A DNA stretch of 64,000 nt from Alphaproteobacteria bacterium (lineage in GTDB: Bacteria > Pseudomonadota > Alphaproteobacteria > CAAHEQ01 > UBA3637), in assembly GCA_045118155.1 (NCBI GenBank), contig JBGUXS010000078.1, positions 443 to 64,442 of the forward strand. The letters are read 5' to 3'. Positions 2,199 to 57,322 of this stretch are shown piece by piece. Position numbers and translations under genes: made by a program. Every line of letters starts with the position of its first letter. Position 1 is the first letter of the stretch. The notes under the pieces are model-generated. The model was not told the DNA's origin. It worked only from the letters and a program-made list of their open reading frames with translations, and did not search any database.

Positions 2199-3341
2199 AT
2201 GCAGAAAAAACGCACCTTTATTATTGGACTTATTTGGGGGCTAATCTTCTTTTGGTGGCTGCACAATTTTTTTTACTTGAATTGGTATTTTCGGTTTTAC
2301 AGTCCCAAAGCTTGGGTTTATTTACTTCATGAATTCAAGTACGGTTGGCGGGTACGGGCCGTTTCCGATTGGATCTTTATTTTTACCCTTATTTTCGCAT
2401 TACCTCTGTTTTTCTGGGGGTGGTATCTATGCTTAAAAATCAAATGGTTGGCTCTTTTTAAATGGATAAAAAAACAATTTTTAAAACTTACCAACAAAAA
2501 ATCAACTGTTGTAAAAAAACAAATGAAGTTAGCCGCTAAAAAAAGTGTGCAAAAAGAACGCCCCCCTGCCCTTGCAACCCCCAAAGTAACTAGTCCCGAA
2601 AAGAAAATGCAAAAAATGCCATCTTCTGCCATCAAAAAAGAAGAAATCGATTTAGATTTTTCTGCTAAAGAAGAATTTTTGAAAGAAGAAAACATTCAAA
2701 CGGCACCTCCTGCCAAAGAACATCGGGCCCCGGATCCACCAAAAGGGGGACCTTCTTTCCTATTTGAAGATGATGATATCCCGCAACAAAACAATGATGT
2801 TCGGGCCGACACACTGTTGTCTGAAATAAAAATGCCAGAACGAGAACGAACACAAGAAAATATCCCAGATATTATTCACGCGCATGGCTTTAAGCCCATC
2901 ACGGCCATTGTGCATCCAGATATTTCTTTTGCGGCCGTTTCTTCAGATACCCTTTTGGTTGCTTTTGTGGATGAAGAACCAGGAGATTGGCTAGCCGATG
3001 AAGAAGATTTTGAAGGGGAAGACCCCTTGTGGTTTTCAGAAAGTTTTCATCGGGTTTCCCCAGTTTTTAAACTATTAAAAGTTGCTAAAAAAATCAGGGC
3101 TCAGTTAGAAAATCAAGGACTTTCTCATAAAGTAATTCCTTACTTAATTGAAAAAATGGGAAATATTATTAACGTAGAAGATATGCAAGAAACGTGGAAA
3201 GAACTGGGGGTCATTGTCTGCCGAACAGATGTTGGGGGGGATGAAACATTACCCACAGTAGAAGCTTCTTTCCCGCAAGCAAAAGATGTTGCAGAAGCTG
3301 CTGATTTAGATATAATAAAAGAAATTTTAAAAAAGTTATAG
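2199..3341 (+). CDS. Hypothetical membrane protein: N-terminal TM segments, K/E/P-rich linker, acidic C-terminal globular domain
   Basis: 380-aa ORF ending 10 nt upstream of virD4. It has W/F-rich TM helices and a low-complexity linker. The C-terminal block (HGFKPITAIVHPDISFAAVSSDTLLVAFVDEEPGDW) loosely resembles a NERD/PD-(D/E)xK-type core, and I assign no family with confidence. Confidence 0.65.
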   Translation: MQKKRTFIIGLIWGLIFFWWLHNFFYLNWYFRFYSPKAWVYLLHEFKYGWRVRAVSDWIFIFTLIFALPLFFWGWYLCLKIKWLALFKWIKKQFLKLTNKKSTVVKKQMKLAAKKSVQKERPPALATPKVTSPEKKMQKMPSSAIKKEEIDLDFSAKEEFLKEENIQTAPPAKEHRAPDPPKGGPSFLFEDDDIPQQNNDVRADTLLSEIKMPERERTQENIPDIIHAHGFKPITAIVHPDISFAAVSSDTLLVAFVDEEPGDWLADEEDFEGEDPLWFSESFHRVSPVFKLLKVAKKIRAQLENQGLSHKVIPYLIEKMGNIINVEDMQETWKELGVIVCRTDVGGDETLPTVEASFPQAKDVAEAADLDIIKEILKKL

Positions 3342-7698: not shown

Positions 7699-9510
7699 TT
7701 AGTCCCGTGTTACTTCGGGAAGGGTAAAATTATTTTCATCAAAAACACAGTATGTTTCAACCCGGGCGCTTAACGTATTGTCCCCCAAAGTTCCCCCTGT
7801 AAAATTCGTGGAACCCGCCCCCGTAACATAGCCAACTTCTATCCCCCATACTCTGGCAATATCCGCTTCGGTTTCTGCCTTTGCTTTATGAACATTATTA
7901 ACAGCCACAGCCACCGTATAGCGCGACACATTTGCATTTGTGACATTTGTGGTAGATCCATTTGTTACACCTTCAAAACTGTTCAAAACGTCCTTTCCGG
8001 TTGTTCGGATCGGGGTAACCACCAAAGCGGCCTTATATCCGGCCGGGCATGCTGGCGTTGTCACATTTGCCCGCAAGCAATTGTTCGTATATCCACTACA
8101 GTTCCCTAAATTAGCTTCTGTCGTTAATTCGGTAATAGATTTTGAAACATAATTCGGCAAGATATCACTTAATCTCGCCCCACCACGAGAAGCCAACTTA
8201 ACATCATTCATCACAGACGTATAAGCTGGATCTACCTGATAATGATCATACGTTTCTGATTCATTAGCAGCTTGAGCATCCACAAATTCAACGGATGAAT
8301 CAATACCTTTTGCAGACACGACTGCATTTTCTACTAACTGACCATCTGCATCATAAGCATTCAGCGTAACTTTCCCCTTGGAAGATCCATCTGTGGCTTC
8401 TTCAGCTTCGGCCTTTAAGACATCACGTCCGGCACTATCTCTGGTAATAATCTGCCCATTAGCATTGACAATAACCCGACGTTTGCCCGTGGCATCATAA
8501 ACGGTCACTGCCCGCTTGTCATTATCCACAGGATCAGTGGAAATAACGGCCGTTGAAACAAAGGCTTGAATTGTTTCCCCATCGTTCACGGGATCATCCA
8601 TAGAAACCGCTTGACGTCCTACATGCAAATCATTGCGGACATAAACATTCCCCGGGGTTCCTGCCAATCCTTCATCCGTTCCGTTTTCAAGATGTTCTGC
8701 CCCTACCCAAAATAAGGGGGCACATTCTTCCCCTGCATCCAAAATTGTATAACCGGTTGCATCTTTTCTAAAGCAATTCGTATTTCCTTCGCCAATAGAA
8801 AAATAGCTCCAAGCATGCAAGTTTTTGAAAGCGGCTTCATCTTCTAAAGAAGAAAAGAGTGCCCCTTCATCAAATCCAGTAAATGCAACATAAGACGGGC
8901 TTACCACAGGTTCCATCATCAAAGATGCCCCTTCTAATTCCCAAGTTCCCATGGTGCCTACAAAATTATCCCCTTGGACGATACCCCCATCAGCCCCAAT
9001 CAAGGCAGCGATACTAGCCGCCCGCTTTAAATTCCATGTTCCTTGCGGCAGTGCCGATGCTTTAGGTAAGATAACTCCATAAAAAGAGGTCCCAACTTTT
9101 GCCCCTTCCGTATTTTCTAAATTTTTCCCAAAAAGGTAAAAATTGTATTTTTCAGCCGTACTTGATGTCAAAACATCCCCTGTGTACGTGTTATAGGTCA
9201 CTGGTAAGTATGTTGCCACATTTTTCCACAACGTGTTATATGAACAATTGGAAGTTTCTGTTCCAGACAATGCACAAACCCCACCACCGGCTGTGGCTAA
9301 TTCTTCAAGTTGCCTATGTTGCGTTTGGATAAAAGAGGAAAAAGCTTCCTTCATCGTACGCATTTCGGTCGCTACATTAACATTGGCTAGTTCCCGATTA
9401 CGTTGTGCCACTTGCCTATACAAAACAGGTCCCAACACCGCCAAGATCCCTAAGACGGCAATAGCTTCTATCATAATAGACCCAGATTGGGTTTTTACAG
9501 CTTTTTTCAT
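7699..9510 (-). CDS. Large (603 aa) protein with a prepilin/TadE-like class III signal N-terminus
   Basis: The N-terminus MKKAVKTQSG|SIMIEAIAVLGILAVLGPVLY has Gly at -1, Glu at +5 and a hydrophobic helix. The remainder is T/N/G/A/V-rich with Cys pairs near the C-terminus. A consensus promoter lies upstream. Confidence 0.7.
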   Translation of the reverse strand: MKKAVKTQSGSIMIEAIAVLGILAVLGPVLYRQVAQRNRELANVNVATEMRTMKEAFSSFIQTQHRQLEELATAGGGVCALSGTETSNCSYNTLWKNVATYLPVTYNTYTGDVLTSSTAEKYNFYLFGKNLENTEGAKVGTSFYGVILPKASALPQGTWNLKRAASIAALIGADGGIVQGDNFVGTMGTWELEGASLMMEPVVSPSYVAFTGFDEGALFSSLEDEAAFKNLHAWSYFSIGEGNTNCFRKDATGYTILDAGEECAPLFWVGAEHLENGTDEGLAGTPGNVYVRNDLHVGRQAVSMDDPVNDGETIQAFVSTAVISTDPVDNDKRAVTVYDATGKRRVIVNANGQIITRDSAGRDVLKAEAEEATDGSSKGKVTLNAYDADGQLVENAVVSAKGIDSSVEFVDAQAANESETYDHYQVDPAYTSVMNDVKLASRGGARLSDILPNYVSKSITELTTEANLGNCSGYTNNCLRANVTTPACPAGYKAALVVTPIRTTGKDVLNSFEGVTNGSTTNVTNANVSRYTVAVAVNNVHKAKAETEADIARVWGIEVGYVTGAGSTNFTGGTLGDNTLSARVETYCVFDENNFTLPEVTRD

Positions 9511-14668: not shown

Positions 14669-15059
14669 GGGCCACCAATGAACGTACCCGTTCTACCATA
14701 GAAAAAAAACCATTCCGACGCGTGGGGGATAAATGATCTTCTAGACCTAAATCCTTAAAAATCCGTTCTATATCCAATTCCCGAATAAAAGCAGCTGTTT
14801 GCCCATTAATTAGGGAAAGTAAAATAGCCTCTAACCCCCGTACAATAAAGGCATCGCTATCGGCAACAAAAAAGAACTTATCCCCTTTTTGCTGAACAGT
14901 AATCCACACTTGTGATTGGCATCCTTGGACCTTATGGGCTTCTGTTTTATCTTCTTCTGGCATCGGGGGTAAACTCTGTCCTAATTCAATTAGGTATTGG
15001 TATTTTTCTTCCCAATCCGTAAATAAAGAAAAATTATCAATTAATTCCTGTTCTGTCAT
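14661..15059 (-). CDS. sufE: SufE-like cysteine desulfuration protein
   Basis: WEEKYQYLIELG and VQGCQSQVWI, the conserved Cys motif of SufE/CsdE. Confidence 0.85.
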   Translation of the reverse strand: MTEQELIDNFSLFTDWEEKYQYLIELGQSLPPMPEEDKTEAHKVQGCQSQVWITVQQKGDKFFFVADSDAFIVRGLEAILLSLINGQTAAFIRELDIERIFKDLGLEDHLSPTRRNGFFSMVERVRSLVAHA

Positions 15060-16462
15060 TCAATGTTTTTTAATCCTTCTAGTGTTAATTTTACCTTTAT
15101 TATATCAACACTGCGATTTTTTTCATCAAAAATACGCTTATCCTCTTGTAAAAAAGGACGTAAGTCTTTTAATAATCCAGCATCTTCAGTAGCTTGACAC
15201 GCTGAATTTTGTAAAAATTCTTTTTCTTGAGGGGTTGTTTGAACCGCCACATTTTGTAAATAGGTTTGCATCAAAGTACATTGTTCTTCATCAATCGGTT
15301 TGGCTGGGGGAGAAATAGCATCAAAATTCCGAATAAGAAATTCAATATCTCCAACGGGTTTTTCCTTTTCAATCTGTCCTGTAAAATGCACATCTATAAC
15401 CGCTTGTACACTTTCCAAACTTCCTTTAACATCCAAATCAGCCCCTTTTAGCAGCCCCCAAGAAAAATCTTTAGAAAGCAATTGTTCTACTAATATTTCA
15501 CGATCAAACTTTTTGGCTTTGATAACTAATTTTCCCTTTTCTGGGATAAACCCTTTGGTCGGGACATTCCCTATACACGCGAATGTTAGGTTAATTTCAG
15601 CTTCCTCCCCCTTAAATTCTACTTGCCCTTCTACCTGCGTTAAAATAATCTTTCTGGGGTAAACGGGAAATACTAAATCCGCCTGTGGTATTTCAAATTC
15701 AATTTTTCCTGTATCCGCCAATAACCATGCATTATGTAAAATAGGGGCTAATCCCTGAAACCGTGCTTTTTCCGTTAAAGAAGCCACCGTCCCTTGCACT
15801 TCTTTCCCCGTAAATGTCAACCCCAAAAGGGAGGCTTTTTGTTCAATAACGGGAACATGCCCCAAAAAAGAAAACATATATTTGCCGTTTGCTTCATCCA
15901 CTTTCAATTGCCATTCGGGGCGCGTCAGGTGTACATGGCTAGCACTCCACCGATCTTCGGCAATCAAATCCCAATACGGGTGCCATTTAAATTCATTTTG
16001 CCACTTTTCAACATAGAAAAAATTGGGTTCAAATACCGCGGTTGCAAAACCTTCTAGTTGTTCTTTTGGGGGAAAGTGTCCCCGATATAACGTCGTCCCT
16101 TCTAATTGCCCATCTGGGGTCAATAATACCCCTTGTGTAGGGAAAGTCATTTCATCCGGTGTTTCTTTAAGTGGCATCCAAACGGTCAGAACTTTTTTCT
16201 TCAAGTCTAAATCATTCTTCACAGATGCTTCTGGCAATATTAAACTTGCTTGATCGGCTCGTTGTTGCAAAACAGCCCCCGAAATCCCCAATGCCTTTAA
16301 CTTCGCCCTTAGGGCCTTAGCCAAAGTATCATGATCCGGTCGTGTCAACACAGTGGATGGGGTTACGTAAGACATAGCATTAGGGAAAAAACGCGTTAAC
16401 ACCGCGCCTTGCAAAGCAACTGCCCCTACAAGAGCCAGACGTCCCAATAATTTTGCTAACAT
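15056..16462 (-). CDS. Hypothetical exported/periplasmic protein (468 aa)
   Basis: N-terminal signal/anchor MLAKLLGRLALVGAVALQGAV. No recognisable catalytic motif. ATGA overlap with sufE. Confidence 0.6.
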   Translation of the reverse strand: MLAKLLGRLALVGAVALQGAVLTRFFPNAMSYVTPSTVLTRPDHDTLAKALRAKLKALGISGAVLQQRADQASLILPEASVKNDLDLKKKVLTVWMPLKETPDEMTFPTQGVLLTPDGQLEGTTLYRGHFPPKEQLEGFATAVFEPNFFYVEKWQNEFKWHPYWDLIAEDRWSASHVHLTRPEWQLKVDEANGKYMFSFLGHVPVIEQKASLLGLTFTGKEVQGTVASLTEKARFQGLAPILHNAWLLADTGKIEFEIPQADLVFPVYPRKIILTQVEGQVEFKGEEAEINLTFACIGNVPTKGFIPEKGKLVIKAKKFDREILVEQLLSKDFSWGLLKGADLDVKGSLESVQAVIDVHFTGQIEKEKPVGDIEFLIRNFDAISPPAKPIDEEQCTLMQTYLQNVAVQTTPQEKEFLQNSACQATEDAGLLKDLRPFLQEDKRIFDEKNRSVDIIKVKLTLEGLKNIE

Positions 16463-24086: not shown

Positions 24087-26123
24087 CTATGGCATTAATT
24101 TATTCCACCAACCTTTTTTCCCTTTTGGACTAGGTTCAGGTGTTTTTTCTGCCTGAGATTCTTGTTCTTTTGAAGATTTTTCTTTAGTTTTTCCTGAAGT
24201 TCTTTTTTTAGGGGCATCAGGTTCTTGACGTCGTTTCGCATCAAATAATACTAAAGATTCCTGAGGGACAACCTTAAATTTTTCTTCAGCAGTTTTTTCT
24301 TCTGTACCCCCATTTCCTTTTTCCTTCTTGGCTTTAAAAGACTTTTTACCCCGTGTATTTTGTTTGTTTTTTTCTTTTGTATCTTTTTCTTCCTTAATTT
24401 GTTCCACTTTTTCTTCTTTTACCGTTTCCTTTTTCTCAGGGGTTGGCTTTTTCTGAAAAATCTTTCTTAACGTACTTGTGGGTTTTTCTTCCACAGGCAA
24501 AGGTTCTTCGCGTTCTGTTTTTTCTAAACGATAATCCGTTAAAACCTGCATATCTGGATCAATCATAATCCGTAAGCTGAATTTGCCTTTTTCTTCTAGT
24601 TCTGTCAACGAAGACCGTGTATTATTCAACAAATACAACGCCACCTTTTCTGGCACAAAAACAATCACATTTTTATTGATAAGTTCTGTTCCGAACCCTT
24701 CTAACAAATGGATCATCCTAATGGCGCAAGATTCCACCGTCCGAACCCGTCCCTTTCCTGCACAACAAGGGCATGGGACATATGAACTTTCCAATACACT
24801 AGAATGTAATCGTTGCCGAGACATTTCCATTAAACCAAAACCCGATATTTTCCCCATTTGAATACGGGCCCGGTCATGACGTAATGCTTCCCGCAAAGCA
24901 CGTTCAATATGTGCATTATTCTTTGGTTCCATCATATCAATAAAATCAATCACAACAAGCCCTGCTAAATCTCTAAGCCGCAATTGACGGGCCAATTCTT
25001 CGCAAGCTTCCAAATTCGTTTTTAAAGCGGTTTCTTCTAAATCCCGTTCCCGAATTGCCCGACCCGAATTCACATCCACCGTTACCATGGCCTCGGTCTG
25101 ATCAATCACTAAATATCCACCAGATTTAAGCTGAGCAACATTGTTATACAAAACCTCTATCTGATTTTCTATTTGGTATTTAGAAAACAATGGGATATCC
25201 CCCCGATATTGAGTTACTTTTTTAGCTTGAGAAGGAAGAAGTAACTTAACAAAATCTTTTACCGATTTAAATGTATCAACCCCTTCTACAAAAACATCTT
25301 CTATATCCGCTGTAAAAACATCCCGCAAAGAACGCTTAATAATATCCCCTTCTTCATGAATCAATTTCGGGGCAATAGAAGATAACGTTTGTTCCCGAAT
25401 TTTCATCCAAGTTTTGATTAAATAATCATAGTCCCGACGAATATCCGTTTTTTTCTTTTCTTGACCGGCTGTTCTAATAATAACACTCATTCCTTCCGGA
25501 ATAGGCAACTTACTGACAATTTCTTTTAAATTCTTACGTTCTTTAACATTCGTAATTTTCCGAGAAATACCAGCCCCTCGCCCATTATTTGGCATCAAAA
25601 CACTATACCGTCCCGCCAAAGAAAGATATGTCGTCAAGGCCGCCCCTTTATTACCACGTTCTTCTTTAATAACTTGGACCAACATGACTTGCCCATGATG
25701 AATCACTTCTTGAATTTTGTATTTTTTAAAAAAAGATGTTTTGGGAATATGAACATCATCCGAAGCCGGGGCAGAAACAACCTCAACATCCCCTTCCACC
25801 GCGGCATCATCTTCCATATCATCACTATCTTTATCTTCTTGGTTAATCAGCTGTTTTAAAGCTTCCTTATCCGCAACTGGAATTTGATAATAATCAGGAT
25901 GAATCCCACTAAACGGTAAAAAACCGTGCCGATGACCACCATAATCTACAAAAGCGGCTTGTAAAGAAGGTTCAACCCGAATAACCTTCGCTAAATAGAT
26001 ATTTCCTTTAATCTGTTTTTTTGTGGATGTATCCACATCCATCTCAACCAATTTCCCATCATCCACGACAGCCACACGGACTTCCTCAGGATGACGCGCA
26101 TCAATAAGCATCTGTTTTGACAT
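24087..26123 (-). CDS. rne: Ribonuclease E/G family endoribonuclease with a K/E-rich C-terminal tail
   Basis: MLIDARHPEEVRVAVVDDGKLVEMD, S1 domain GNIYLAKVIRVEPSLQAAFVDYG, LVVIDFIDM and CPCCAGKG. The promoter at 26269-26297 falls inside the longer track ORF, which supports the 26123 start. Confidence 0.92.
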   Translation of the reverse strand: MSKQMLIDARHPEEVRVAVVDDGKLVEMDVDTSTKKQIKGNIYLAKVIRVEPSLQAAFVDYGGHRHGFLPFSGIHPDYYQIPVADKEALKQLINQEDKDSDDMEDDAAVEGDVEVVSAPASDDVHIPKTSFFKKYKIQEVIHHGQVMLVQVIKEERGNKGAALTTYLSLAGRYSVLMPNNGRGAGISRKITNVKERKNLKEIVSKLPIPEGMSVIIRTAGQEKKKTDIRRDYDYLIKTWMKIREQTLSSIAPKLIHEEGDIIKRSLRDVFTADIEDVFVEGVDTFKSVKDFVKLLLPSQAKKVTQYRGDIPLFSKYQIENQIEVLYNNVAQLKSGGYLVIDQTEAMVTVDVNSGRAIRERDLEETALKTNLEACEELARQLRLRDLAGLVVIDFIDMMEPKNNAHIERALREALRHDRARIQMGKISGFGLMEMSRQRLHSSVLESSYVPCPCCAGKGRVRTVESCAIRMIHLLEGFGTELINKNVIVFVPEKVALYLLNNTRSSLTELEEKGKFSLRIMIDPDMQVLTDYRLEKTEREEPLPVEEKPTSTLRKIFQKKPTPEKKETVKEEKVEQIKEEKDTKEKNKQNTRGKKSFKAKKEKGNGGTEEKTAEEKFKVVPQESLVLFDAKRRQEPDAPKKRTSGKTKEKSSKEQESQAEKTPEPSPKGKKGWWNKLMP

Positions 26124-26268
26124 AAATTCCCCACTAATATTTTTTGAAAACAAGGCGTATCGGCGGTAAGGCTTACCCCTAATAAAGTAAAAAGCCCTAA
26201 ATAAATCATCAACATAGTTCCGCCAATCCGTAAAAAAACTTAAAACAATATTTTCTATTGCGTTTGTT

Positions 26269-26297
26269 ATTATACCGATATACAATCCAAGAATCAA
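26269..26297 (-). promoter_or_regulatory. sigma70 promoter for rne (TTGATT-17-TATAAT) giving a ~140-nt 5' UTR
   Basis: The minus strand reads CTTGATTCTTGGATTGTATATCGGTATAAT. Confidence 0.6.
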
Positions 26298-26322: not shown

Positions 26323-27459
26323 ATGCGTATCTTATACTTGTTTTTAATGGCTTTTTTGTTTGCTTTCCCCTCGTTAGGGGTAACGGTTCAAGATGTTCGT
26401 TTTTCGGCATCCTCTCCTCAAAAAGTACGGTTGGTTGCTGATTTATCCGAAAAAACAGAAGCTAAAGTTTTTAGGTTACAAAATCCCCCACGGTTAGTTG
26501 TTGATTTTGAAAAGGCAACTTTTTCTTCTGTTGTTAAAAATAATACTTTTAAACCTGTTGCCTTCATTGAAGGAATTCGTTTAGGGGTTCCTCAACCTAA
26601 TATCGGGCGGCTTGTCTTGGATATTCCCACAAAAGATTTAACCGAAAACCACTTTTTCCTTCCTCCGGGGGCGGGGAAAACTTGGCGTTTTGTCATTGAT
26701 TTAACGTTGGCCGAATCTACAAATTCAGAGGCAACAACTTACCATAAGGGGCTTACACCATTTCCAGCAAAAGCCCCCCGACAAAAAATTGTCATGTTGG
26801 ATCCGGGGCATGGGGGGCAAGATCCAGGGGCGATTTCTTCCACGGGGAAGTATGAAAAACACTTAACACTTTTATTTGCCAATGAAGCTAAAAAAGTGTT
26901 AGAAAAAAAAGGGTATACCGTTTATATGACCCGAACAAATGATACGGCCGTTTCTCTTCGATCCCGTATAGAAAAAGCCCATAAACACAATGCCGATATT
27001 TTTATTTCTATCCACGCCGACAGTGCCAAAAATAAATCCGCAAAAGGATTATCTATTTACACGATTTCTGAAAAAGCCTCTGATGCAGAAGCAGCCGCCT
27101 TAGCCGAACGTGAAAACAAAGCGGATATCATTTTAGGGATCAATCTAGAAGAATACCAAGAATCTATTGGCAACATTTTAATTGACTTAGCTAAACGCGA
27201 TACTATGGATAAATCTGCCCAATATGCAGAACTCTTTGTCAAGGAAGTTAAGCATACCGCCCAACTAAAAACCACCCCTCATCGCTTTGCTGGATTTGTG
27301 GTTTTAAAATCACCAAACATACCATCTGTTCTAATAGAACTTGGATATCTTTCCAACAAGAAAGAAGAAAAGATGCTTCAAAAGAAATCCTACCGAGCCG
27401 AAATCATTACTGCCCTTGCTAAAGGCTTAGATCAATACTTTAAAGAATTGGGGGATTGA
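26323..27459 (+). CDS. N-acetylmuramoyl-L-alanine amidase (AMIN domain + Amidase_3)
   Basis: Signal peptide, AMIN-like VRLVADLSEKTEAKVFRLQNPPRLVVDF, IVMLDPGHGGQDPGA, ISIHADS and VLIELGYLSN. Confidence 0.9.
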   Translation: MRILYLFLMAFLFAFPSLGVTVQDVRFSASSPQKVRLVADLSEKTEAKVFRLQNPPRLVVDFEKATFSSVVKNNTFKPVAFIEGIRLGVPQPNIGRLVLDIPTKDLTENHFFLPPGAGKTWRFVIDLTLAESTNSEATTYHKGLTPFPAKAPRQKIVMLDPGHGGQDPGAISSTGKYEKHLTLLFANEAKKVLEKKGYTVYMTRTNDTAVSLRSRIEKAHKHNADIFISIHADSAKNKSAKGLSIYTISEKASDAEAAALAERENKADIILGINLEEYQESIGNILIDLAKRDTMDKSAQYAELFVKEVKHTAQLKTTPHRFAGFVVLKSPNIPSVLIELGYLSNKKEEKMLQKKSYRAEIITALAKGLDQYFKELGD

Positions 27460-27758
27460 TGCCACCATTTTTAAGCCCTGATGAAGATTCGTGTCTTTTA
27501 CACATTTTATTGGTTCCTAATGCTAAAGAAAATAAGATTTATGGTCTTTTTAATGAACGATTAAAACTTTATATTTCTGCCCCAGCTGTGGACGGAAAAG
27601 CGAATAAAGCTTTAATTAAATACCTGGCTGATCTCTTTAACCTAAAAAAAAATCAGATTTCCTTGATACAAGGGGAAAGATCCCATCAAAAAACAGTACG
27701 ACTAGATGCCCCTATTGACCACATCTGTACTTGTTTAAGTCAACATATTTCCGTGTAA
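27456..27758 (+). CDS. DUF167 (YggU-like) protein
   Basis: LLVPNAKENKIYG and LKLYISAPAVDGKANKALIKYLADLF. Confidence 0.8.
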   Translation: MMPPFLSPDEDSCLLHILLVPNAKENKIYGLFNERLKLYISAPAVDGKANKALIKYLADLFNLKKNQISLIQGERSHQKTVRLDAPIDHICTCLSQHISV

Positions 27759-28805
27759 AATACGTGTAATCTCGCTTCCTTGCATCAAAGAAAAACCTAA
27801 GGCTTGGGCTTGTTGTATTTCTTGAGGGGTTTGAATATCAAACAAGATAATTTTTTCTTTAGGATAATTCAAAGTAGCAGCCCATTTCATCTGTTGACTA
27901 TTAATCTTTAGGTAATGCATCGGGATTTTATCCCATGCTAAATAGGATATTTCCTCCGGAATGCGTAATAAAAAGAGGGATTGTTGATAACAAGGTATTT
28001 TTTGAATACTTTGCCATAAATCCCGTTCCCAAAGAAAATCTGATAAACTTATTTCATAAGAAATACCTTGATGTTGATACAATTGGTGCATTTCCTGATA
28101 AACGGGTTGGGTTAAAAGATAAGGACTCGCAGAAAAAACTCCTCCTTGTGTTTTGGGCAATTCCTTTTTTAAAATTTTTGTATACAGCGCATTCTTAAAG
28201 GCCCTTTTCAAATATGTATCAGAATCCAATATCACCTTTGGAAATAGAACTTGACGGACATCAATATCTTTACAAAAAACACTGGTAAATACAGGAACCA
28301 TCTCGGTTAAATCATGAACCTGACAAATGCATTGATGCCGTGTTAAATGTGAAACATCCGCTGTTTTTAGCTCTGATAAAATATGTGTGAGAGTTGGGGT
28401 ATCCAAGGGCAATGAAGGAATTTTTTGAAGCACTTTTAAATCAGAAAAATCTGCTGTTGGGGTTAGCTCTTGATGATTAATTTTATGGATCAAAGCATTA
28501 AAATCTGTGATTAAATTAAAAAATGATAATTTATGTTCTTGGAAAAAGGATTTTTCCAGCCCCTTTAATTTCAAGGAAAGCAACATCATATCCTGTAATT
28601 TATTATGGGCAAAAAAGGCAACGCTATCCCCTTCGCTTAAAAAGAACAATTTCGTTTGATATGTCTGTTCAAAAGAACTCAAAAAATGCAAAAGAACCTT
28701 TTTTTTCTCATCTTCTTTAGGTAAAGGAATATAAAGAGCATGCCCTTTAAATGTTCTTTTTTCAAGATATTTGAGATAGTCAAAAACACTATTATACCGC
28801 ATCAT
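27735..28805 (-). CDS. Degenerate GGDEF-like + EAL-like two-domain protein (paralog 1)
   Basis: KLFFLSEGDSVAFFAHN sits where RxGGDEFavll would be. The C-terminal half follows the EAL topology (LLRIPEEISYLAWDKIPMHYLKINSQ, then IILFDIQTPQEIQQAQALGFSLMQG) but lacks the catalytic EAL and DDFG residues. Confidence 0.6.
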   Translation of the reverse strand: MMRYNSVFDYLKYLEKRTFKGHALYIPLPKEDEKKKVLLHFLSSFEQTYQTKLFFLSEGDSVAFFAHNKLQDMMLLSLKLKGLEKSFFQEHKLSFFNLITDFNALIHKINHQELTPTADFSDLKVLQKIPSLPLDTPTLTHILSELKTADVSHLTRHQCICQVHDLTEMVPVFTSVFCKDIDVRQVLFPKVILDSDTYLKRAFKNALYTKILKKELPKTQGGVFSASPYLLTQPVYQEMHQLYQHQGISYEISLSDFLWERDLWQSIQKIPCYQQSLFLLRIPEEISYLAWDKIPMHYLKINSQQMKWAATLNYPKEKIILFDIQTPQEIQQAQALGFSLMQGSEITRILHGNMLT

Positions 28806-29874
28806 ATCCCCTTAAATGTTGCACACACACGCATTGTGATGCTTGATGCGGGATCGCCCCCATTTGCATACACGTTTGTAAAGCACAATCTCCCCCATAT
28901 GGACACGTTTTTTTTCGAGAAGCCGCATGAATCAAATCAATAAAATCACCTTGAAAAAAGGTATATGGGGAAGACAGAATTTGAGTTAATTTTTCTTGCG
29001 TATCCACTCCTGTTACAAAAACAGGAACATGATTGATTGATTGTGTTAAACAAACTTCTACGGGAAGAAGTAAAAAATCAGCTTCTAATAAATCAAAACG
29101 ATAAAAGGCCGTTTCTGCAGTAATGCCCCCAATACCTAACCGATACTGTTTTCCTGGACGAGTTAGGGCTTCCTTATACAGATTTTTATTTAACAAGACT
29201 TCTGCAATATCTAAAATAATCCAAACTGGGTCATTATTTTCAATCCAAGCACTTTCCAACGTTCCTTGCACCATCAAAGGCAATGTCGTTTGTTTAAACA
29301 GCTCTTTATTTGGGTGTTGCAATAATTGTTTCTGTATTTTCTGAACTAACCACATTGGAAGCTGATCCATATTGTTTTTTAAGGTCCATGTATATCCCCA
29401 CAGAGAGTTGCTCCCCTTTTGATAAATTACCCGCCTAAACCAACTATTTTTTTCGGGAATATCTTTTAAAAAAGCCTCATAATCAACCTCTTGATTCGTT
29501 TGCTTTTTAGCTATCTGAATCAGGGACAAAACCCCCATCAAATCCTGTGGTAAATGGAACAAGCGTACATTTTCTTCTTTTTTTCCTGTTTGAATTTGAA
29601 AAAATGTTTGAATTTGGCGCATCACATCCACAACTTGATGTTCATCAAGATCAACCCCTATTAATAAACGATCTTGTTGTTCAAATGTAAAAAGCCGACA
29701 ATATTCATACGCTAATAACGGTTCTAATAAATGTTCTATGACGTGCATCAACCTTTCGGCCCCTGGCAGACCTAATAATTGACTTGTCCCTATCCAAAGG
29801 ACAACCGACGGTGTTTCTAAAGCAGCGACACGCTTTATTGTTTCTAAGGCCAGTTGTTCTTGTGTCTCATACAT
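28792..29874 (-). CDS. Degenerate GGDEF-like + EAL-like two-domain protein (paralog 2)
   Basis: CRLFTFEQQDRLLIGV sits in the GGDEF position. VIYQKGSNSLWGYTWTL corresponds to YQPi...g.EaL, followed by RLGIGGITAETAFYRFDLLEADFLLLP and VFVTGVDTQEKLTQILSSPYTFFQG. It overlaps paralog 1 by 14 nt. Confidence 0.6.
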   Translation of the reverse strand: MYETQEQLALETIKRVAALETPSVVLWIGTSQLLGLPGAERLMHVIEHLLEPLLAYEYCRLFTFEQQDRLLIGVDLDEHQVVDVMRQIQTFFQIQTGKKEENVRLFHLPQDLMGVLSLIQIAKKQTNQEVDYEAFLKDIPEKNSWFRRVIYQKGSNSLWGYTWTLKNNMDQLPMWLVQKIQKQLLQHPNKELFKQTTLPLMVQGTLESAWIENNDPVWIILDIAEVLLNKNLYKEALTRPGKQYRLGIGGITAETAFYRFDLLEADFLLLPVEVCLTQSINHVPVFVTGVDTQEKLTQILSSPYTFFQGDFIDLIHAASRKKTCPYGGDCALQTCMQMGAIPHQASQCVCVQHLRGYDAV

Positions 29875-29899
29875 TTTTTCTTCCTAAACTTGAGCTTTC

Positions 29900-29927
29900 A
29901 GTATAAAGGATATCCTTGAAAAAACAA
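29900..29927 (-). promoter_or_regulatory. Candidate promoter (TTGTTT-16-TATACT) for the GGDEF/EAL-like operon, with a 12-bp palindrome in the spacer
   Basis: The minus strand reads TTGTTTTTTCAAGGATATCCTTTATACT. The perfect palindrome AAGGATATCCTT (29906-29917) abuts the -10. Confidence 0.4.
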
Positions 29928-29980
29928 CTTGTTTTTTTGGGAAAAATCTTGCATACTCCTTTCAATAGGAGGAATCACAC

Positions 29981-31951
29981 ATGCATTACTTAACAGGGGA
30001 AGAAGTTTCTGTCACATCCTTAAAAACAATAGCCCAAGAATTTGGTTTTATGTTGTGGCCGCACCCCGATGATCCTTTCTTATTGCATAAAACACCCTAT
30101 CAAAGTTTTCCAGAAATGCTTTCTGTCCTTACAGATCATATTACAGAAAAAAAACTTAATTCCCTCTTCACTTTCCCTGTTTCTTTCATCTTAGATGCGA
30201 ATGCACAATCTGAATCCTTACATAACTTCTTTAAATATCAAGCCCGTAACCAATTGGATAAAACCATCGGTGTCTTGCTAACTTGCCCCGTTATTTACGC
30301 CTGTGATGTTGCGCAAATTTTTACCGAAGCCTTACATCAACGATTACACTTTCCTAGCACACGTTACAGTAATATTCATATGGCTATTCATGAAGCGCTC
30401 GTCAATGGTTTAGTGCATGGAAATCTAAAACTACCTAGTTCTTTACGGCAATCAGCTCGTGATTTCGTTGATTACGCCCGCATTGTTAATGAACGCTTAT
30501 TAGACCCTGCCTATGCTAATAAATCCATCAGTATTTGGGCTACTTGGAATACCTCTAGATTGGAAATTAAGATTCGGGACGAAGGGGCTGGATATACGGT
30601 TTTACCCCCCCATAAAAAACATGTGGCAGAAAAACGTTCTGGACGGGGGCTTTATCTAATTGCCGGAACTGCTGATTCCTGCACAATTGATGATTTTGGG
30701 CGAGAAATCACATTATCTTTTATTCTAAATAATCTAAACAACGAACAAGATATCGGGGTTTCTGAAAATGCGGCTTTACTGCATGATCCTGTAACCGATT
30801 TTTCGGATTGTCGTATTTTAATCATTGAAGATAACCCCAGTAATCAAATCTTGGTTTCACAACTTTTAAACGTGGTTGGAATTGGTCATATTGAAACAGC
30901 TCAAGATGGGGTTGAAGGCCTTGAAAAAGCATTCAGTATGAAACCAGACTTAGTCATTTTGGACATCACTATGCCCCGAATGAATGGATATGAAGTACTT
31001 CACCAACTCAGAACAAATCAAGATACGGCCTCTATCCCGGTTTTAATTCAAACGGCTTCTGATACACGGGCAGCACGGGATAAAACTTTTAGTGCGGGGG
31101 CAACAGACTTTATCACAAAGCCATTAAATCCTTTGGAATTTTTCTCTCGGATACGGGTACACTTAGAAAATAGATTACTTGTAAAACATCTTGAAACGAA
31201 ACTCGCTCAAATCAATGAAGAACTAGAACTTGCCCAAAAAATGCAAGAAAGTTTATTACCCCCCACGGAAGCACTTCAAGATATCAGCCAACGTTATCAT
31301 CTAGATATTTCTTATACGTTCTTACCTTCTTCCCATTTAGGGGGGGATTTCTGGCAAATTTTTCCATTGGCTAAAGATAAGGTCGCTTTTTATATTTGCG
31401 ATTTTTCGGGACATGGGGTAAGTGCTGCCATGAATACGTTCCGATTACACACCTTAATCGGGCAAATGGATATGACGGCATTGAAAAAGCCTTCCGAATT
31501 TCTTTTTATGCTTAATAATTCTTTGGTCAACTTGTTGCCCAGGGGACAATTTGCTACTTTCTTCTTTGGTATTTTAAACAAGCGACAAGGAACATTAACA
31601 TATGCTGGGGCCAGTTCGCCCTTCCCTATTTTGGTTAAGGACAACAAACCCTCTTTCTTAGATACTTCCGGGATGCCTTTGGGAATTTTAAAGGACGTTA
31701 CTTATAAAGATAAAAAGGTACCATTTTCCAAAGAAATGGGCATTTTACTATACAGTGACTCTTTCACTGAACAACAAAATAAAGAAGGAAATCGCCTTGA
31801 TTATGATGGTTTTATGAAAATGACTCAGACGTGTTTCTCAGAAAAAACATCTCAACAAGTCATTGCCCAAATCATGCAAAAATTTCATGAATTTTCTGAC
31901 ACCCCTAGTACCGATGATATTACGGCTGTCTATTTGAAAGGCCTCTTATGA
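29981..31951 (+). CDS. Fusion protein: RsbW/SpoIIAB-like HATPase kinase domain + response-regulator receiver + PP2C (SpoIIE/RsbU-type) phosphatase
   Basis: N-box HEALVNGLVHGN, G1 IRDEGAGY and G2 SGRGLYLIAG. REC: ILIIEDNPSN, DLVILDITMPRMNG and ITKP. PP2C: GGDFWQIF, YICDFSGHGVSAAM and TDDITAVYLK. Confidence 0.85.
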   Translation: MHYLTGEEVSVTSLKTIAQEFGFMLWPHPDDPFLLHKTPYQSFPEMLSVLTDHITEKKLNSLFTFPVSFILDANAQSESLHNFFKYQARNQLDKTIGVLLTCPVIYACDVAQIFTEALHQRLHFPSTRYSNIHMAIHEALVNGLVHGNLKLPSSLRQSARDFVDYARIVNERLLDPAYANKSISIWATWNTSRLEIKIRDEGAGYTVLPPHKKHVAEKRSGRGLYLIAGTADSCTIDDFGREITLSFILNNLNNEQDIGVSENAALLHDPVTDFSDCRILIIEDNPSNQILVSQLLNVVGIGHIETAQDGVEGLEKAFSMKPDLVILDITMPRMNGYEVLHQLRTNQDTASIPVLIQTASDTRAARDKTFSAGATDFITKPLNPLEFFSRIRVHLENRLLVKHLETKLAQINEELELAQKMQESLLPPTEALQDISQRYHLDISYTFLPSSHLGGDFWQIFPLAKDKVAFYICDFSGHGVSAAMNTFRLHTLIGQMDMTALKKPSEFLFMLNNSLVNLLPRGQFATFFFGILNKRQGTLTYAGASSPFPILVKDNKPSFLDTSGMPLGILKDVTYKDKKVPFSKEMGILLYSDSFTEQQNKEGNRLDYDGFMKMTQTCFSEKTSQQVIAQIMQKFHEFSDTPSTDDITAVYLKGLL

Positions 31952-32655
31952 TTCGGGTGTATATAGAGGCTCTGGACCCTAAAAAACCAACACCTCTTTC
32001 TGTGGATCACTATCATTATTTGGCCCACGTTATGCGTTTAAAAGCGGGGGACAGTTTTTTAGCGTTTAATCAACTTCAAGGGGAATTTTTAGCTGTATTT
32101 CAACCTAAAAACAAAAAAGAAGGTCATCTTTTACTACAAAAACAAACGCGTTTACCAGAACAACCTCGTCCGCCTGTAACACTTTATATCGCCCCTATCC
32201 GAAAAGAAAAAATGGAACTTGTGTTACAAAAGGCAACAGAAATTGGCGTAGAGATCATCCAACCTATTTTAACGAAACATACATGCCATCGGCCTTTATC
32301 AAAAGAACGGGCGGATATTATTATAAAAGAAGCGGTAGAACAATCTGAACGGCTGACATTACCTAATTGGCTTCCCCCTATATCTTTGGAAGAACTTCTT
32401 ATTAAACGTTCAACAGATATCCCTCTTTTTTACCTATCCGAACGAGGGGAAACGCAACATATTTCTTTGCCCGCCCCTCCTATAAGCTTTCTTATCGGAC
32501 CAGAAGGGGGATTTTCTAAGGAAGAAATTACCTTATTAGGTCAACAAAAAAACGCCCAAGCTATCAACCTAGGCGCTTTTATTCTACGGGCGGAAACAGC
32601 CGCTATTGCTATGCTAGCGACCTACCGCTTTCATAAACTGTTTTATACAGCTTGA
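31948..32655 (+). CDS. rsmE: 16S rRNA (uracil1498-N3)-methyltransferase
   Basis: HYLAHVMRLKAGD, KMELVLQKATEIGV, FLIGPEGGFSKEE and ILRAETAAIA. Confidence 0.9.
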   Translation: MIRVYIEALDPKKPTPLSVDHYHYLAHVMRLKAGDSFLAFNQLQGEFLAVFQPKNKKEGHLLLQKQTRLPEQPRPPVTLYIAPIRKEKMELVLQKATEIGVEIIQPILTKHTCHRPLSKERADIIIKEAVEQSERLTLPNWLPPISLEELLIKRSTDIPLFYLSERGETQHISLPAPPISFLIGPEGGFSKEEITLLGQQKNAQAINLGAFILRAETAAIAMLATYRFHKLFYTA

Positions 32656-32831
32656 CGTAGTTTTTCCTCACAGCAACACTTTTCTTCAACAAACCATATA
32701 CGATCTTCAAATTCGGATTTTTTCCCCTTATTGAATTGGCTAACAGGACGAAAATACCCCATAACCCGTGTCCAACATTCCACCGCTTGACGTTCATTAG
32801 AAAATTTTTCTAAAATTTGGTTATCTGTCAT
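32643..32831 (-). CDS. Glycyl-radical peptide of anaerobic ribonucleotide reductase, encoded as a separate 62-aa ORF
   Basis: TRVMGYFRPVSQFNKGKKSEFEDR matches the NrdD C-terminal glycyl-radical motif (RxxGY...N.GK..E...R). Its ATG overlaps the stop of the 689-aa nrdD ORF (ATGA). Confidence 0.7.
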   Translation of the reverse strand: MTDNQILEKFSNERQAVECWTRVMGYFRPVSQFNKGKKSEFEDRIWFVEEKCCCEEKLRQAV

Positions 32832-34897
32832 GCTTTGTTCTCCTTTTCTGCAAGTTCTTGACGTTTTTTTTCAATGAGTTCCGCATCACACTTTGGGCAG
32901 AACTTGTGTTCCCCACTAATATACCCATGCTTGGGGCAAATAGAATAGACAGGGGTAATAGAAACATAAGGAAGATGATAATTTTCTAATACCCGTCTAA
33001 TAAGTGATTTACAAACACTTGCTGAAGAAATCCGTTCATTCATATACAGGTGCAAAACCGTTCCCCCTGTATACTGTGTTTGCAATTCATCTTGATAATC
33101 CAACGCTTTAAACGGATCATCTGTGAAGTTCTGTGGTAATTGAGAAGAGTTTGTATAATAGGGGGCCTCTTTCTTTCCTGCTTGAATAATACCAGGATAG
33201 CGTTTTTGATCTTCTTTGGCAAAACGATATGTTGTCCCTTCAGCTGGCGTTGCTTCCAAATTGTACATATTTCCTGTTTCTGCTTGGAAATCCAGCATTT
33301 TTTCCCGAATATGTGTTAAAAATTCTTTAGCCATCGCCCGCCCTTTTTCCGAAGCAATGTATTCTTCATCATTAGTAAAGTTCCGAATCATTTCATTAAT
33401 ACCATTAACCCCAATCGTGGAAAAATGATTTCGGAATGTTCCTAAATATCGCCGTGTATAAGGATACAACCCCCGATCCATGTGCATTGAAATGGTTTTA
33501 CGTTTAATTTCTAAGGAAGTCTTCGCTAATTCCAGTAATTCATCCAAACGTTTATACAATTCCTCTTTCTTCCCCTTATACAGGTATCCCAAACGGGCAC
33601 AGTTAATTGTAACAACCCCAATAGACCCCGTTTGTTCTGCTGAACCAAATAAACCACCACCTCGTTTTTTCAATTCCGTCAAATCCAACCGTAACCGACA
33701 ACACATTGAACGAATATCTGAAGGCTTCATATCAGAACTAACATAGTTTGAAAAATAGGGTAATCCATATTTAGCCGTCATTTCAAATAACAATTCCGTA
33801 TTTTCAGAATCCCATGGGAATTCATTTGTAATATTGTATGTCGGGATAGGGAAAGTAAACGGCCGCCCTTTGGCATCCCCACTTCCCATAACTTCTAAAT
33901 AAGCCCTATTAATCATATCCATTTCTTTTTGCAGATCACCATAAACAAAATCTTGTTCCACCCCCCCAATGATAGGGTGCCGATTCTTCAAATCTTCAGG
34001 GCAATTCCAATCAAAAGTTAAGTTCGTAAAGGGTGTCTGTGTCCCCCAACGCGATGGTACATTCAAGTTAAAGATGAAGGATTGCATCGCTTGTTTTACT
34101 TCTTCATAAGGTAATTTTTCAATTCGTATAAATGGTGCTAAGTACGTATCCACAGAAGAAAACGCCTGTGCCCCAGCCCATTCATTCTGCAAAGTCCCCA
34201 AGAAATTAATCATCTGGCTAAACGCAGAAACAAGGTGTTTTGGCGGTTTAGATTCTGTCTTATTGGGAACCCCATTAAAACCTTCTTCTAATAAAACCCT
34301 TAAGGACCACCCTGCACAATACCCACTCAACATATCCAAATCATGAATATGATAATCCCCATTTCGGTGAGCTTCCCCAATTTCTGGCGTATACACGTGG
34401 CTCAACCAATAATTGGCCACCACCTTTCCTGCCGTATTTAAAATCAATCCCCCTAAGGAATATCCTTGATTAGCATTTGCGTTCACCCGCCAATCTGACC
34501 GATCTAAATATTCATTAATAGAAGCCACCGCATCAATAACCGTTTTCTTATCATTCCGCATTTTTCCGCGTTGTTCACGGTACACGATATAAGCCCGGGC
34601 AGTTTTGTAATAATTAGAGGAAATTAAAACCTGTTCAACCACATCTTGAATTTGCTCAATATTAGGATAAACCCCGAAAGCAAACCGATGCTTTAAAACC
34701 TTAATAACTTGTCTTGTTAATAACCACGCTTCATCTTGACCGAATTCAGCCGTTGCTTCCCCAGCTTTCAAAATAGCAACCATAATTTTAGTCACATCAA
34801 ACGGATACTGTTGCCCATCCCGTTTAATTACATAGCTCAACGGACTAATATCAATGGTTACATTTAGCGGCTGGGCTCCTGTCAAAACTTGCAACAT
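32828..34897 (-). CDS. nrdD: Anaerobic (class III) ribonucleoside-triphosphate reductase, large part lacking the glycyl-radical segment
   Basis: ATP-cone (VIKRDGQQYPFDVTKI), catalytic core (SMCCRLRLD, GSIGVVTINCARLGY, NLEATPAEG) and Zn-ribbon CPKHGYISGEHKFCPKCD. It then stops after a K/E-rich tail. Confidence 0.9.
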   Translation of the reverse strand: MLQVLTGAQPLNVTIDISPLSYVIKRDGQQYPFDVTKIMVAILKAGEATAEFGQDEAWLLTRQVIKVLKHRFAFGVYPNIEQIQDVVEQVLISSNYYKTARAYIVYREQRGKMRNDKKTVIDAVASINEYLDRSDWRVNANANQGYSLGGLILNTAGKVVANYWLSHVYTPEIGEAHRNGDYHIHDLDMLSGYCAGWSLRVLLEEGFNGVPNKTESKPPKHLVSAFSQMINFLGTLQNEWAGAQAFSSVDTYLAPFIRIEKLPYEEVKQAMQSFIFNLNVPSRWGTQTPFTNLTFDWNCPEDLKNRHPIIGGVEQDFVYGDLQKEMDMINRAYLEVMGSGDAKGRPFTFPIPTYNITNEFPWDSENTELLFEMTAKYGLPYFSNYVSSDMKPSDIRSMCCRLRLDLTELKKRGGGLFGSAEQTGSIGVVTINCARLGYLYKGKKEELYKRLDELLELAKTSLEIKRKTISMHMDRGLYPYTRRYLGTFRNHFSTIGVNGINEMIRNFTNDEEYIASEKGRAMAKEFLTHIREKMLDFQAETGNMYNLEATPAEGTTYRFAKEDQKRYPGIIQAGKKEAPYYTNSSQLPQNFTDDPFKALDYQDELQTQYTGGTVLHLYMNERISSASVCKSLIRRVLENYHLPYVSITPVYSICPKHGYISGEHKFCPKCDAELIEKKRQELAEKENKA

Positions 34898-53517: not shown

Positions 53518-53805
53518 ATGCGGGAACCTATTTTAAAAGCGGTCAGTATGCCGGCGCGTATTTTATGGGCGCCGTCGGTTCCGGCGTTGTTAAACATGGT
53601 TTGTCAATTACCTTTCATGTTGTTCTATGCGGGACAAGGGGGCAACCCTTTGCTATTCATGGGAACTATCATCGGGGTTCATGCCTTAATTGCTCTTTAT
53701 GCCGCGAAAGAACCTCATTTATCTAATATGTTCAAAGCCCAAGGTCCTTTCTTTAAGAAAAGTTCACAAATGTATACCTCATCAGGAAGAAAATACGCCC
53801 CATGA
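53518..53805 (+). CDS. virB3: Type IV secretion system protein VirB3
   Basis: ~96 aa. ILKAVSMPARILWAPSVPALLNM (L.ka.tRP...GvP pattern) and two TM helices. ATGA overlap with virB4. The track ORF starts earlier, at 53497. Confidence 0.8.
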   Translation: MREPILKAVSMPARILWAPSVPALLNMVCQLPFMLFYAGQGGNPLLFMGTIIGVHALIALYAAKEPHLSNMFKAQGPFFKKSSQMYTSSGRKYAP

Positions 53806-57226: not shown

Positions 57227-57322
57227 GAAAAAAAGTAAAAAAGCGTTTTTTTTAAATTTTAATCACATTTTATGCTTGCTTTTCCCACAAAAAAAAGGTT
57301 GAATGATGCGCAGAGGAGAATT

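Follow-up and report, generated by a model that had tools for sequence, protein, structure and literature searches.

A translationally coupled pair of degenerate GGDEF–EAL paralogues with an upstream four-cysteine tail in uncultured Alphaproteobacteria

Introduction

What can a GGDEF–EAL protein do once both of its active sites are lost? The question is raised by two adjacent genes in a 64,000-nucleotide stretch of DNA from an alphaproteobacterium (contig JBGUXS010000078.1 of assembly GCA_045118155.1, positions 443 to 64,442 of the forward strand). This whole stretch is referred to as the window, and its own numbering is used throughout. An earlier sequence-only reading described the genes, here denoted A (downstream) and B (upstream), as tandem paralogues in which a degenerate GGDEF-like domain is followed by a degenerate EAL-like domain, and compared them with LapD and FimX, which bind c-di-GMP (cyclic di-GMP), the bacterial messenger that intact GGDEF and EAL enzymes make and break. 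Herein, we find that A and B are extreme members of a widespread family whose conserved unit is the B–A pair, that they have lost nearly all residues of the nucleotide site, and that B ends in an invariant four-cysteine (Cys4) motif. A non-catalytic adaptor role is proposed, with modest confidence.

Degenerate GGDEF–EAL proteins (LapD, FimX, CsrD) as well as ligand-free EAL-like proteins (YdiV) are already known. LapD has transmembrane (TM)/HAMP modules and FimX has REC/PAS modules. CsrD of Escherichia coli is a degenerate GGDEF–EAL protein that lacks c-di-GMP binding and directs RNase E decay of CsrB/C. The EAL-like proteins YdiV/STM1697 do not bind c-di-GMP either; they work through the sequestration of FlhD and further regulators. 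In the literature on RocR and TBD1265, the canonical EAL site comprises ten residues, i.e. the E and R of ExLxR, N, the two Glu of an E..E pair, D-D, K, the E of EGVE, and Q. An RxxD motif, the I-site, serves degenerate GGDEF receptors, for example PelD and PopA.

Results and discussion

Homology of A and B to GGDEF–EAL proteins

Both open reading frames (ORFs) are present as originally described: they lie on the minus strand, with B 5′ of A, and share 14 nt. The strings quoted for the GGDEF position, FLSEGDSVAFF and FTFEQQDRLLI, correspond to residues 55–65 of A and 62–72 of B. The shared layout is invisible to simple searches. Pfam gave no match to A or B at E ≤ 10, NCBIfam gave none, and BLASTP did not align A with B. 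The narrow A profile had no match among the PDB sequences at E ≤ 10, and 5.8 billion protein clusters held only three homologues of A and two of B. Comparison of three-sequence families of A and B with hhalign provided a colinear C-terminal match of 7% probability. At that level, the described layout could have been an over-reading.

The relationship emerged from a wider family. With the profile of the A family, exhaustive HMMER searching retrieved 230 proteins at E ≤ 1e-3, mostly of 390–440 aa and many of them matched end-to-end. The Pfam EAL profile matched 74 of the 80 wide-family proteins tested (best 7.7e-14), with scores around the gathering threshold and coverage of profile positions ~58–235 of 236; Pfam GGDEF matched none of the 80. 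One member, from Thalassospira tepidiphila, carries the NCBI annotation [quoted passage not shown]. When the 80-sequence family profile was compared with PDB sequences, only EAL domains were matched (RbdA, 1.9e-11; PA0861, 5.5e-11; BlrP1, 5.7e-6; LapD, ~1e-3). In hhalign comparisons with an EAL reference, the wide A family aligned over 211 columns, the whole domain (97.4%, E 1.5e-11), the wide B family reached 91.9–92.6% (E 4.5e-7 to 6.9e-7), and a narrow eight-sequence A family already reached 92.8%; the EAL and GGDEF reference alignments are small and built from E. coli K-12 proteins only. The narrow B family was too shallow for either reference and became informative only after B-type relatives had been added. 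The TIM-barrel-like β/α fold and significant profile similarity to the EAL superfamily (PF00563) were both found. The block-by-block correspondence to EAL domains that had been read from the sequence, including the KiD-like block and the terminal ..T.(E/Q)...QG block, is the register of these alignments. A and B are extreme members of a family of proteins of roughly 400–430 aa, which has no database name though it is widespread and which is recognised in databases, if at all, through weak matches to EAL.

Structural models agree with this assignment. The AlphaFold2 model of A has a predicted local distance difference test score (pLDDT) of 69.5, with 80–90 over residues ~200–345. That of B scores 52 overall and 68–81 in its N-domain; both models were built from three-sequence alignments, B was modelled before the wider homologues were found, and its EAL half is unreliable. 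Foldseek with the B model ranked full-length GGDEF–EAL tandems at the top, led by Vibrio cholerae LapD (6pwk; E 6.3e-4, 341 columns) and followed by PA0861, DosP, PA0575, Pseudomonas fluorescens LapD and MorA. Independent lines of evidence (fold, profiles and transitive homology) support the assignment that the sequence-only reading had made.

Both N-domains show the secondary structure order α-β-α-β-β-α-β-α, and the palm-like β-α-α-β-β-α-β fold with the signature hairpin of GGDEF domains (PF00990) is present. Against an eight-sequence GGDEF reference, the N-domain-only profile of A reached 74.5% (E 2.7e-5, 84 columns) and that of B 12.9% (E 2.2e-3, 98 columns), compared to E 0.07–0.6 for reversed-GGDEF and EAL controls. 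An earlier four-sequence reference had given weak results, which the use of eight sequences and N-domain-only queries improved. The alignments of A and B to GGDEF are colinear and share one common register: β1 (ALYIPL in A, VVLWIG in B) is aligned to the DxDxFK strand, and SEGDS (A) and EQQDR (B) occupy the hairpin, as first proposed. The GG(D/E)EF active-site motif itself is absent, being replaced by S-E-G-D-S and E-Q-Q-D-R. Of this motif only the acidic residue is conserved, D60 in 116 of 130 A-type and D68 in all 13 B-type proteins. Direct reading of the sequences revealed no RxxD I-site 6–9 residues upstream of the hairpin in A or B. Neither protein has an N-terminal input module of the TM/HAMP or REC/PAS kind by Pfam, hydropathy or models, and both begin directly with the GGDEF-like domain. 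No TM-like segment was found in either, the maximum 19-residue Kyte–Doolittle hydropathy being 1.06 (A) and 1.35 (B).

Paralogy, pairing and translational coupling

Comparison of the wide A family (130 sequences) with the wide B family (13 sequences) in hhalign gave 100% probability and E 2.3e-59 over 302 columns. A hidden Markov model (HMM) of A-type proteins free of B-type sequences matches B at 3.4e-15, and the B-type HMM matches A at 2.4e-19. A less diverged anaerobe (locus L015) has a tandem pair with 24% identity between its two members over 395 aa (E 4e-37). Its downstream member is an A orthologue (E 3e-10), and its upstream member is colinear with B-family proteins (E 5e-8 and 3e-6) and has the Cys-rich tail of B. 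These three lines of evidence bear out the tandem paralogy with a common layout. The A/B duplication is old.

The junction of the two genes reads TTAAGGGGATATGATGCGGTATAA. The Shine–Dalgarno sequence for A, AAGGGG, lies within the last codons of B and 5 nt before the second ATG of A, at 28802. Public gene calls start A at this second ATG, which results in a protein of 355 aa and an 11-nt overlap with B. A stop/start overlap or a 2-nt gap separates B and A in all clade homologues. A scan of 27400–30200, the region spanning both genes, revealed no terminator-like site, and no promoter-like signal there exceeded shuffles. B and A are a translationally coupled operon. At its other end, the 3′ end of A (27735–27758) overlaps by 24 nt the 3′ end of a convergent DUF167 (YggU-family) gene at 27456–27758 (+).

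The clade of the window comprises uncultured Alphaproteobacteria metagenome-assembled genomes (MAGs) from buffalo, sheep and roe-deer gut, and B precedes A in all clade loci. The order extends well beyond this clade. A metagenome scan with a profile of four closer B-type sequences yielded 68 loci; the samples were of gut, marine, sediment, freshwater and soil origin. Wherever a B-type gene had room downstream, an A-type gene followed directly on the same strand (21 of 21 loci, i.e. 19 with the strict Cys4 motif, and L039 and L042, in which the tail of the upstream member is a six-Cys variant). Only two B-type genes were unpaired, both at contig ends. Among the metagenome loci there are also 11 tandem pairs with no Cys tail on the upstream member, and some 15 genuine singletons. 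In L040, L044, L046, L047, L049, L053, L056, L058, L062 and L085, mostly marine, the upstream member has no Cys4 tail and ends soon after QG; singletons such as L014 (Thalassospira) and L066–L071 have the C-terminus “RCD...LFQGR”. The family thus occurs in three configurations or more. What is conserved as a unit is the B–A pair.

Strain differences amount to nine synonymous and no non-synonymous changes in A, and to five synonymous and six non-synonymous changes in B. A and B are real genes; A is tightly constrained by strong purifying selection, B less so. The segment KRTFKGHAL of A is unchanged in 12 clade members whose identity is otherwise ~29–50%, and is absent from the wider family. We speculate that T18 within it could be a phospho-acceptor.

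Loss of the nucleotide site

Ten is also the number of conserved catalytic and binding residues given for EAL domains in PMC3510510. A keeps three of the ten (S175, K179, S225, E251, L254, R281, I282, K300, Q325, Q342 in canonical order) and B one (gap, S157, P199, I220, I223, G249, G250, L269, D291, Q308). At six of the ten positions, E, N, E, D and K among them, the canonical residue is still the commonest in the wide family, and the EGVE Glu is conservatively replaced by Asp (Table 1). The N-terminal β-hairpin of the EAL-like domain is ~12 residues shorter in B.

Table 1 Residues of A, the wide A-type family (130 sequences) and B at EAL signature positions
EAL position	A	Wide-family majority	B
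Q of YQP	Q158	Q 123/130	R148
E of ExLxR	S175	E 113/130	none (hairpin shortened)
R of ExLxR	K179	S 86/130	S157
N	S225	N 114/130	P199
E of ExxE	E251	E 123/130	I220
D-D of DDFG	R281-I282	D 109 / G 92 of 130	G249-G250
K of KxD	K300	K 126/130	L269
Last E of EGVE	Q325	D 93 + E 17 of 130	D291
QG	Q342-G343	Q 126/130	Q308-G309

The replacement of catalytic signatures noted earlier is apparent in both proteins. Judged by sequence, catalysis by A or B is excluded, be it c-di-GMP synthesis or hydrolysis, and canonical c-di-GMP binding by either appears unlikely. The ExLxR motif, the determinant of c-di-GMP binding by FimX and LapD, both degenerate receptors (PMC10333796), is missing from A as well as B: A reads S175-V-F-C-K179, and in B no Glu is aligned and S157 takes the place of the Arg. 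The wide family has E-x-(F/Y)-x-S here. The proposed analogy with LapD and FimX fails on this decisive point. The absence of ExLxR makes a role as c-di-GMP receptor less probable than one as an adaptor that needs no ligand or has a different one. YdiV, which keeps two of the ten residues, binds no c-di-GMP (PMC3510510).

The cysteine-rich tail of B

Four cysteines in the pattern C-x5-C-x4-C-x10-14-C (C324, C330, C335 and C348 in B) are invariant in 13 of 13 B-type proteins, which are only 16–23% identical to B except for a close relative, P0005 (75%). The motif begins exactly 16 residues past the terminal (Q/E/S)G of the EAL domain. The tail is tentatively attributed to a Zn or Fe–S site, metal binding being suggested by the cysteine pattern. 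The sequence-only reading had stated that the pair lacks any sensory or TM domain. The TM part of this statement stands; the sensory part does not, as the invariant Cys4 tail is a plausible metal or redox input. A literature search on EAL proteins with Fe–S or Cys tails found nothing relevant.

Proposed function and alternatives

A 656-aa regulator that combines an RsbW-type kinase, a REC domain and a PP2C phosphatase is divergently transcribed from B (Table 2). It occupies the same position in seven of the seven clade loci having upstream sequence and is 56–61% identical between them, whereas between the same lineages A is ~29% and B ~23% identical. Its best NCBIfam match is the Pseudomonas-type REC-PP2C protein RssB (2e-40, below cut-off). 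The link to this regulator is specific to the clade.

On balance we favour, if by no means firmly, the view that A and B are a coupled pseudoenzyme pair. The two proteins would co-assemble as a non-catalytic heteromer: strict pairing and translational coupling favour stoichiometric co-assembly, and canonical EAL domains commonly dimerise (PMC3510510). This heteromer, presumably without binding c-di-GMP, would work as a signalling adaptor via protein–protein contacts, with the Cys4 tail of B supplying a metal or redox (Zn or Fe–S) input. In the gut alphaproteobacterial clade, the input or output of the adaptor would run through the kinase-REC-PP2C regulator, a functional link suggested by synteny.

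Several observations weigh against this proposal. The GGDEF origin of the N-domains has moderate statistics. The EAL half of B is poorly modelled, with pLDDT 27–56 except for one 10-residue block reaching 70, and the residue map of B rests on profile alignment, in which the hairpin region is uncertain. The PP2C regulator is not a neighbour in the wider family, and a gene for a STAS partner was not found in the 64-kb window. Finally, it is conceivable that Q158, K300, Q342, K179 and R281 of A form a metal-independent phosphate-binding pocket, because the narrow A clade has K/R at the Arg position of ExLxR and an invariant R281 at a metal-binding Asp position.

This last point leads to the strongest alternative, which we nonetheless consider rather unlikely: the pair, or A alone, could be a receptor in the manner of LapD and FimX, holding c-di-GMP or a related nucleotide (pGpG, cGAMP, GTP) in the remnant EAL groove without metal and relaying its occupancy to a partner. 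A retains Q158, E251, K300 and Q342-G343 and is under strong purifying selection, R156, K179, R281 and K300 would line the groove, and the groove of YdiV still binds phosphate and glycerol (PMC3510510). Conversely, ExLxR, the determinative motif (PMC10333796), reads S175-x-F-x-K179 in A and falls in a shortened segment of B with no aligned Glu, the I-site is lacking, and of the ten residues said to be needed for binding (PMC3510510) A has lost seven and B nine. Moreover, no GGDEF, EAL, HD-GYP or PilZ gene occurs elsewhere in the window, a result that covers these 64 kb and not the rest of the genome.

Distinctly less probable, as a whole, is a more elaborate combination in which the pair would be an obligate B–A heterodimeric pseudoenzyme switch independent of c-di-GMP, that is, a new sort of partner-switch made from dead GGDEF–EAL proteins. 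As parts of this combination, the Cys4 motif of B would hold an Fe–S cluster or Zn and sense redox state, O2 or iron in this anaerobe; the metal-free basic groove of A (R156, K179, R281, K300) would bind another phosphorylated ligand or a phospho-protein; and KRTFKGHAL, through T18, would be a substrate of the kinase-REC-PP2C regulator, with A replacing the STAS protein.

That A and B are decaying relics without current function, or that their resemblance is a compositional artefact, is very improbable. Fast evolution relative to the PP2C neighbour and the excess of non-synonymous strain differences in B (six versus five) would fit decay. However, the ORFs are intact and keep their length and order between lineages with identities as low as 22%, KRTFKGHAL, the Cys4 tail, D60/D68 and QG are invariant, A shows nine synonymous versus no non-synonymous changes, and the fold and profile matches are highly significant. 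Weakest of all, and effectively refuted by sequence, is the idea that A and/or B are still an active phosphodiesterase or diguanylate cyclase with an unusual active site: the wider family keeps six of ten EAL residues, so that distant relatives might retain some activity, but in A the metal ligands are replaced (E of EAL by S, N by S, D-D by R-I, E of EGVE by Q), B is without nine of ten residues including the catalytic Lys (L269), and SEGDS and EQQDR stand in place of GG(D/E)EF.

Relation to known systems

The favoured adaptor reading has partial precedents. LapD (P. fluorescens, V. cholerae) and FimX (Pseudomonas, Xanthomonas) resemble A and B in having a degenerate GGDEF followed by a degenerate EAL domain and in being non-catalytic. 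They keep ExLxR, which A and B lack, and bind c-di-GMP (PMC10333796). A and B further differ from them in lacking TM/HAMP or REC/PAS modules, in forming an obligate tandem paralogue pair, in the N-domain trimmed to ~115 aa and in the Cys4 tail on B.

YdiV/STM1697 (Enterobacteria) show a comparable loss of the active site (two of ten residues in YdiV, PMC3510510, against three in A and one in B), and YdiV is the model for a ligand-independent, protein-binding EAL domain. Still, YdiV is single-domain, stand-alone and monomeric, whereas A and B are two-domain and paired and have no sequence affinity to the YdiV subfamily; neither the EAL-only architecture nor membership of the YdiV/STM1697 subcluster applies to them.

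CsrD, like A and B, has both domains degenerate, and its function is c-di-GMP-independent in E. coli (PMC10333796). Unlike the paired A and B, it is membrane-anchored with GAPES4/HAMP modules and encoded by a single gene. The B-type relative in L015 has a faint NCBIfam CsrD match (E 0.0032, far below cut-off).

For the regulator, the closest parallels are HsbR-HsbA-HsbD and SiaABCD of Pseudomonas aeruginosa, partner-switch modules in which GGDEF proteins are controlled through protein contact. HsbR joins phosphatase and kinase activities to a receiver, and its control of the cyclase HsbD runs through HsbA by contacts between the proteins (PMC5085249). Its module mix resembles that of the RsbW-type kinase-REC-PP2C regulator in the window, and it is a precedent for such regulators acting on GGDEF-family proteins by protein–protein interaction. 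These systems employ a STAS/SiaC intermediary and an active cyclase, while here the 64 kb hold no STAS gene and the GGDEF-like domains are dead.

Genomic setting

The features of the locus are collected in Table 2. Across the wider family, the upstream neighbours of the pairs are heterogeneous, with REC in only 2 of 15; a REC partner for the family as a whole was considered and given up for this reason. The downstream neighbour varies as well: the window and L005 have DUF167 and AmiC there, the other loci NMO. This convergent DUF167/AmiC neighbourhood is kept in L005 and not in more distant clade members.

Table 2 Coordinates of A, B, their parts and the divergent regulator in the window
Feature	Position	Strand	Description
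Gene A (downstream, A-type paralogue)	27735..28805	−	356-aa ORF, probably 355 aa from ATG 28802; degenerate GGDEF-like + degenerate EAL-like domain
Gene B (upstream, B-type paralogue)	28792..29874	−	360-aa ORF; degenerate GGDEF-like + degenerate EAL-like domain + Cys4 tail
B N-domain (residues ~1–115)	29530..29874	−	GGDEF/cyclase-like palm fold; hairpin E65-Q66-Q67-D68 at GGDEF position
B EAL-like domain (residues ~125–318)	28921..29502	−	hhalign; residue map via A–B alignment; 1/10 canonical residues (Q308)
B C-terminal Cys-rich tail	28825..28905	−	C324-x5-C330-x4-C335-x12-C348, plus C350; putative Zn or Fe–S site
A N-domain (residues ~1–115)	28461..28805	−	Palm-like fold; hairpin S57-E58-G59-D60-S61 aligned to G-G-D-E-F
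A KRTFKGHAL (residues 16–24)	28734..28760	−	Just before and into β1; invariant in the window's clade only
A EAL-like domain (residues ~136–350)	27756..28400	−	Q158, E251, K300, Q342-G343 retained
B/A junction	28792..28813	−	AAGGGG Shine–Dalgarno 28808–28813; A ATGs 28805 and 28802; B stop 28792–28794
Kinase-REC-PP2C regulator (656 aa)	29981..31951	+	HATPase_c_2 (RsbW-type kinase), REC, PP2C (SpoIIE) by Pfam; divergent from B

The gene for RNase E (24087–26297, −) lies ~1.4 kb from A and was considered as a CsrD-like clue. It was rejected as such, since the proximity is not conserved in L010–L013, and is probably coincidental.

The window encodes a diderm, rod-shaped housekeeping set (LpxA/LpxD/FabZ, BamA, RseP, MreBC/PBP2/RodA, PNPase, RNase E, DnaE, GatABC), together with scattered genes for type IV secretion and a ribonucleotide reductase of the anaerobic type. 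The “reduced endosymbiont-like genome” assumed earlier is not established, as the relatives are ruminant-gut MAGs (contigs of 29–240 kb) and the housekeeping set is ordinary.

Some further observations concern these surroundings. The anaerobic ribonucleotide reductase NrdD appears to be split: a 689-aa ORF (32828–34897, −) ends after a C-terminal Cys-rich CPKH...CPKC region, and a 62-aa ORF (32643–32831, −) with the glycyl-radical-like TRVMGYFRP overlaps it by 4 nt (ATGA). Both pieces match Pfam NRDD. The same split occurs in four independent assemblies (L001–L004) and is therefore not a sequencing error. A VirD4/TraG-like coupling protein and a VirB4/TrbE-like ATPase are encoded at 3351–5522 (+) and 53802–56237 (+), 48 kb apart among housekeeping genes; such scattered type IV secretion genes recall host-associated Alphaproteobacteria. 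Four ORFs have no Pfam match at E ≤ 1e-5, namely 2199–3341 (+, 380 aa), 7699–9510 (−, 603 aa), 15056–16462 (−, 468 aa) and 57272–58063 (+, 263 aa).

Conclusions

A and B are set apart from known degenerate GGDEF–EAL proteins by an obligate paralogue pair, a Cys4 tail on the upstream member, the absence of a classical input module and a GGDEF remnant of ~115 aa, and the clade of the window additionally by a degeneracy beyond direct Pfam detection. The Cys4 tail rule, the B-then-A rule, and the combination of near-total loss of the nucleotide site with fixed PP2C synteny in one clade are new, being undescribed in the literature searched. As a part of bacterial signalling, degenerate GGDEF/EAL proteins are recognised yet poorly mapped; LapD, FimX, CsrD and YdiV, the well-studied cases, each revealed a distinct mechanism. 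The present work defines a family that annotation pipelines overlook or call weak EAL, and provides a profile and diagnostic motifs for annotating A/B-type proteins. The A/B pair is a tractable test case for two questions: how pairs of enzymes turn into heteromeric adaptors made of pseudoenzymes, and whether a metal or redox input can be carried by an EAL scaffold.

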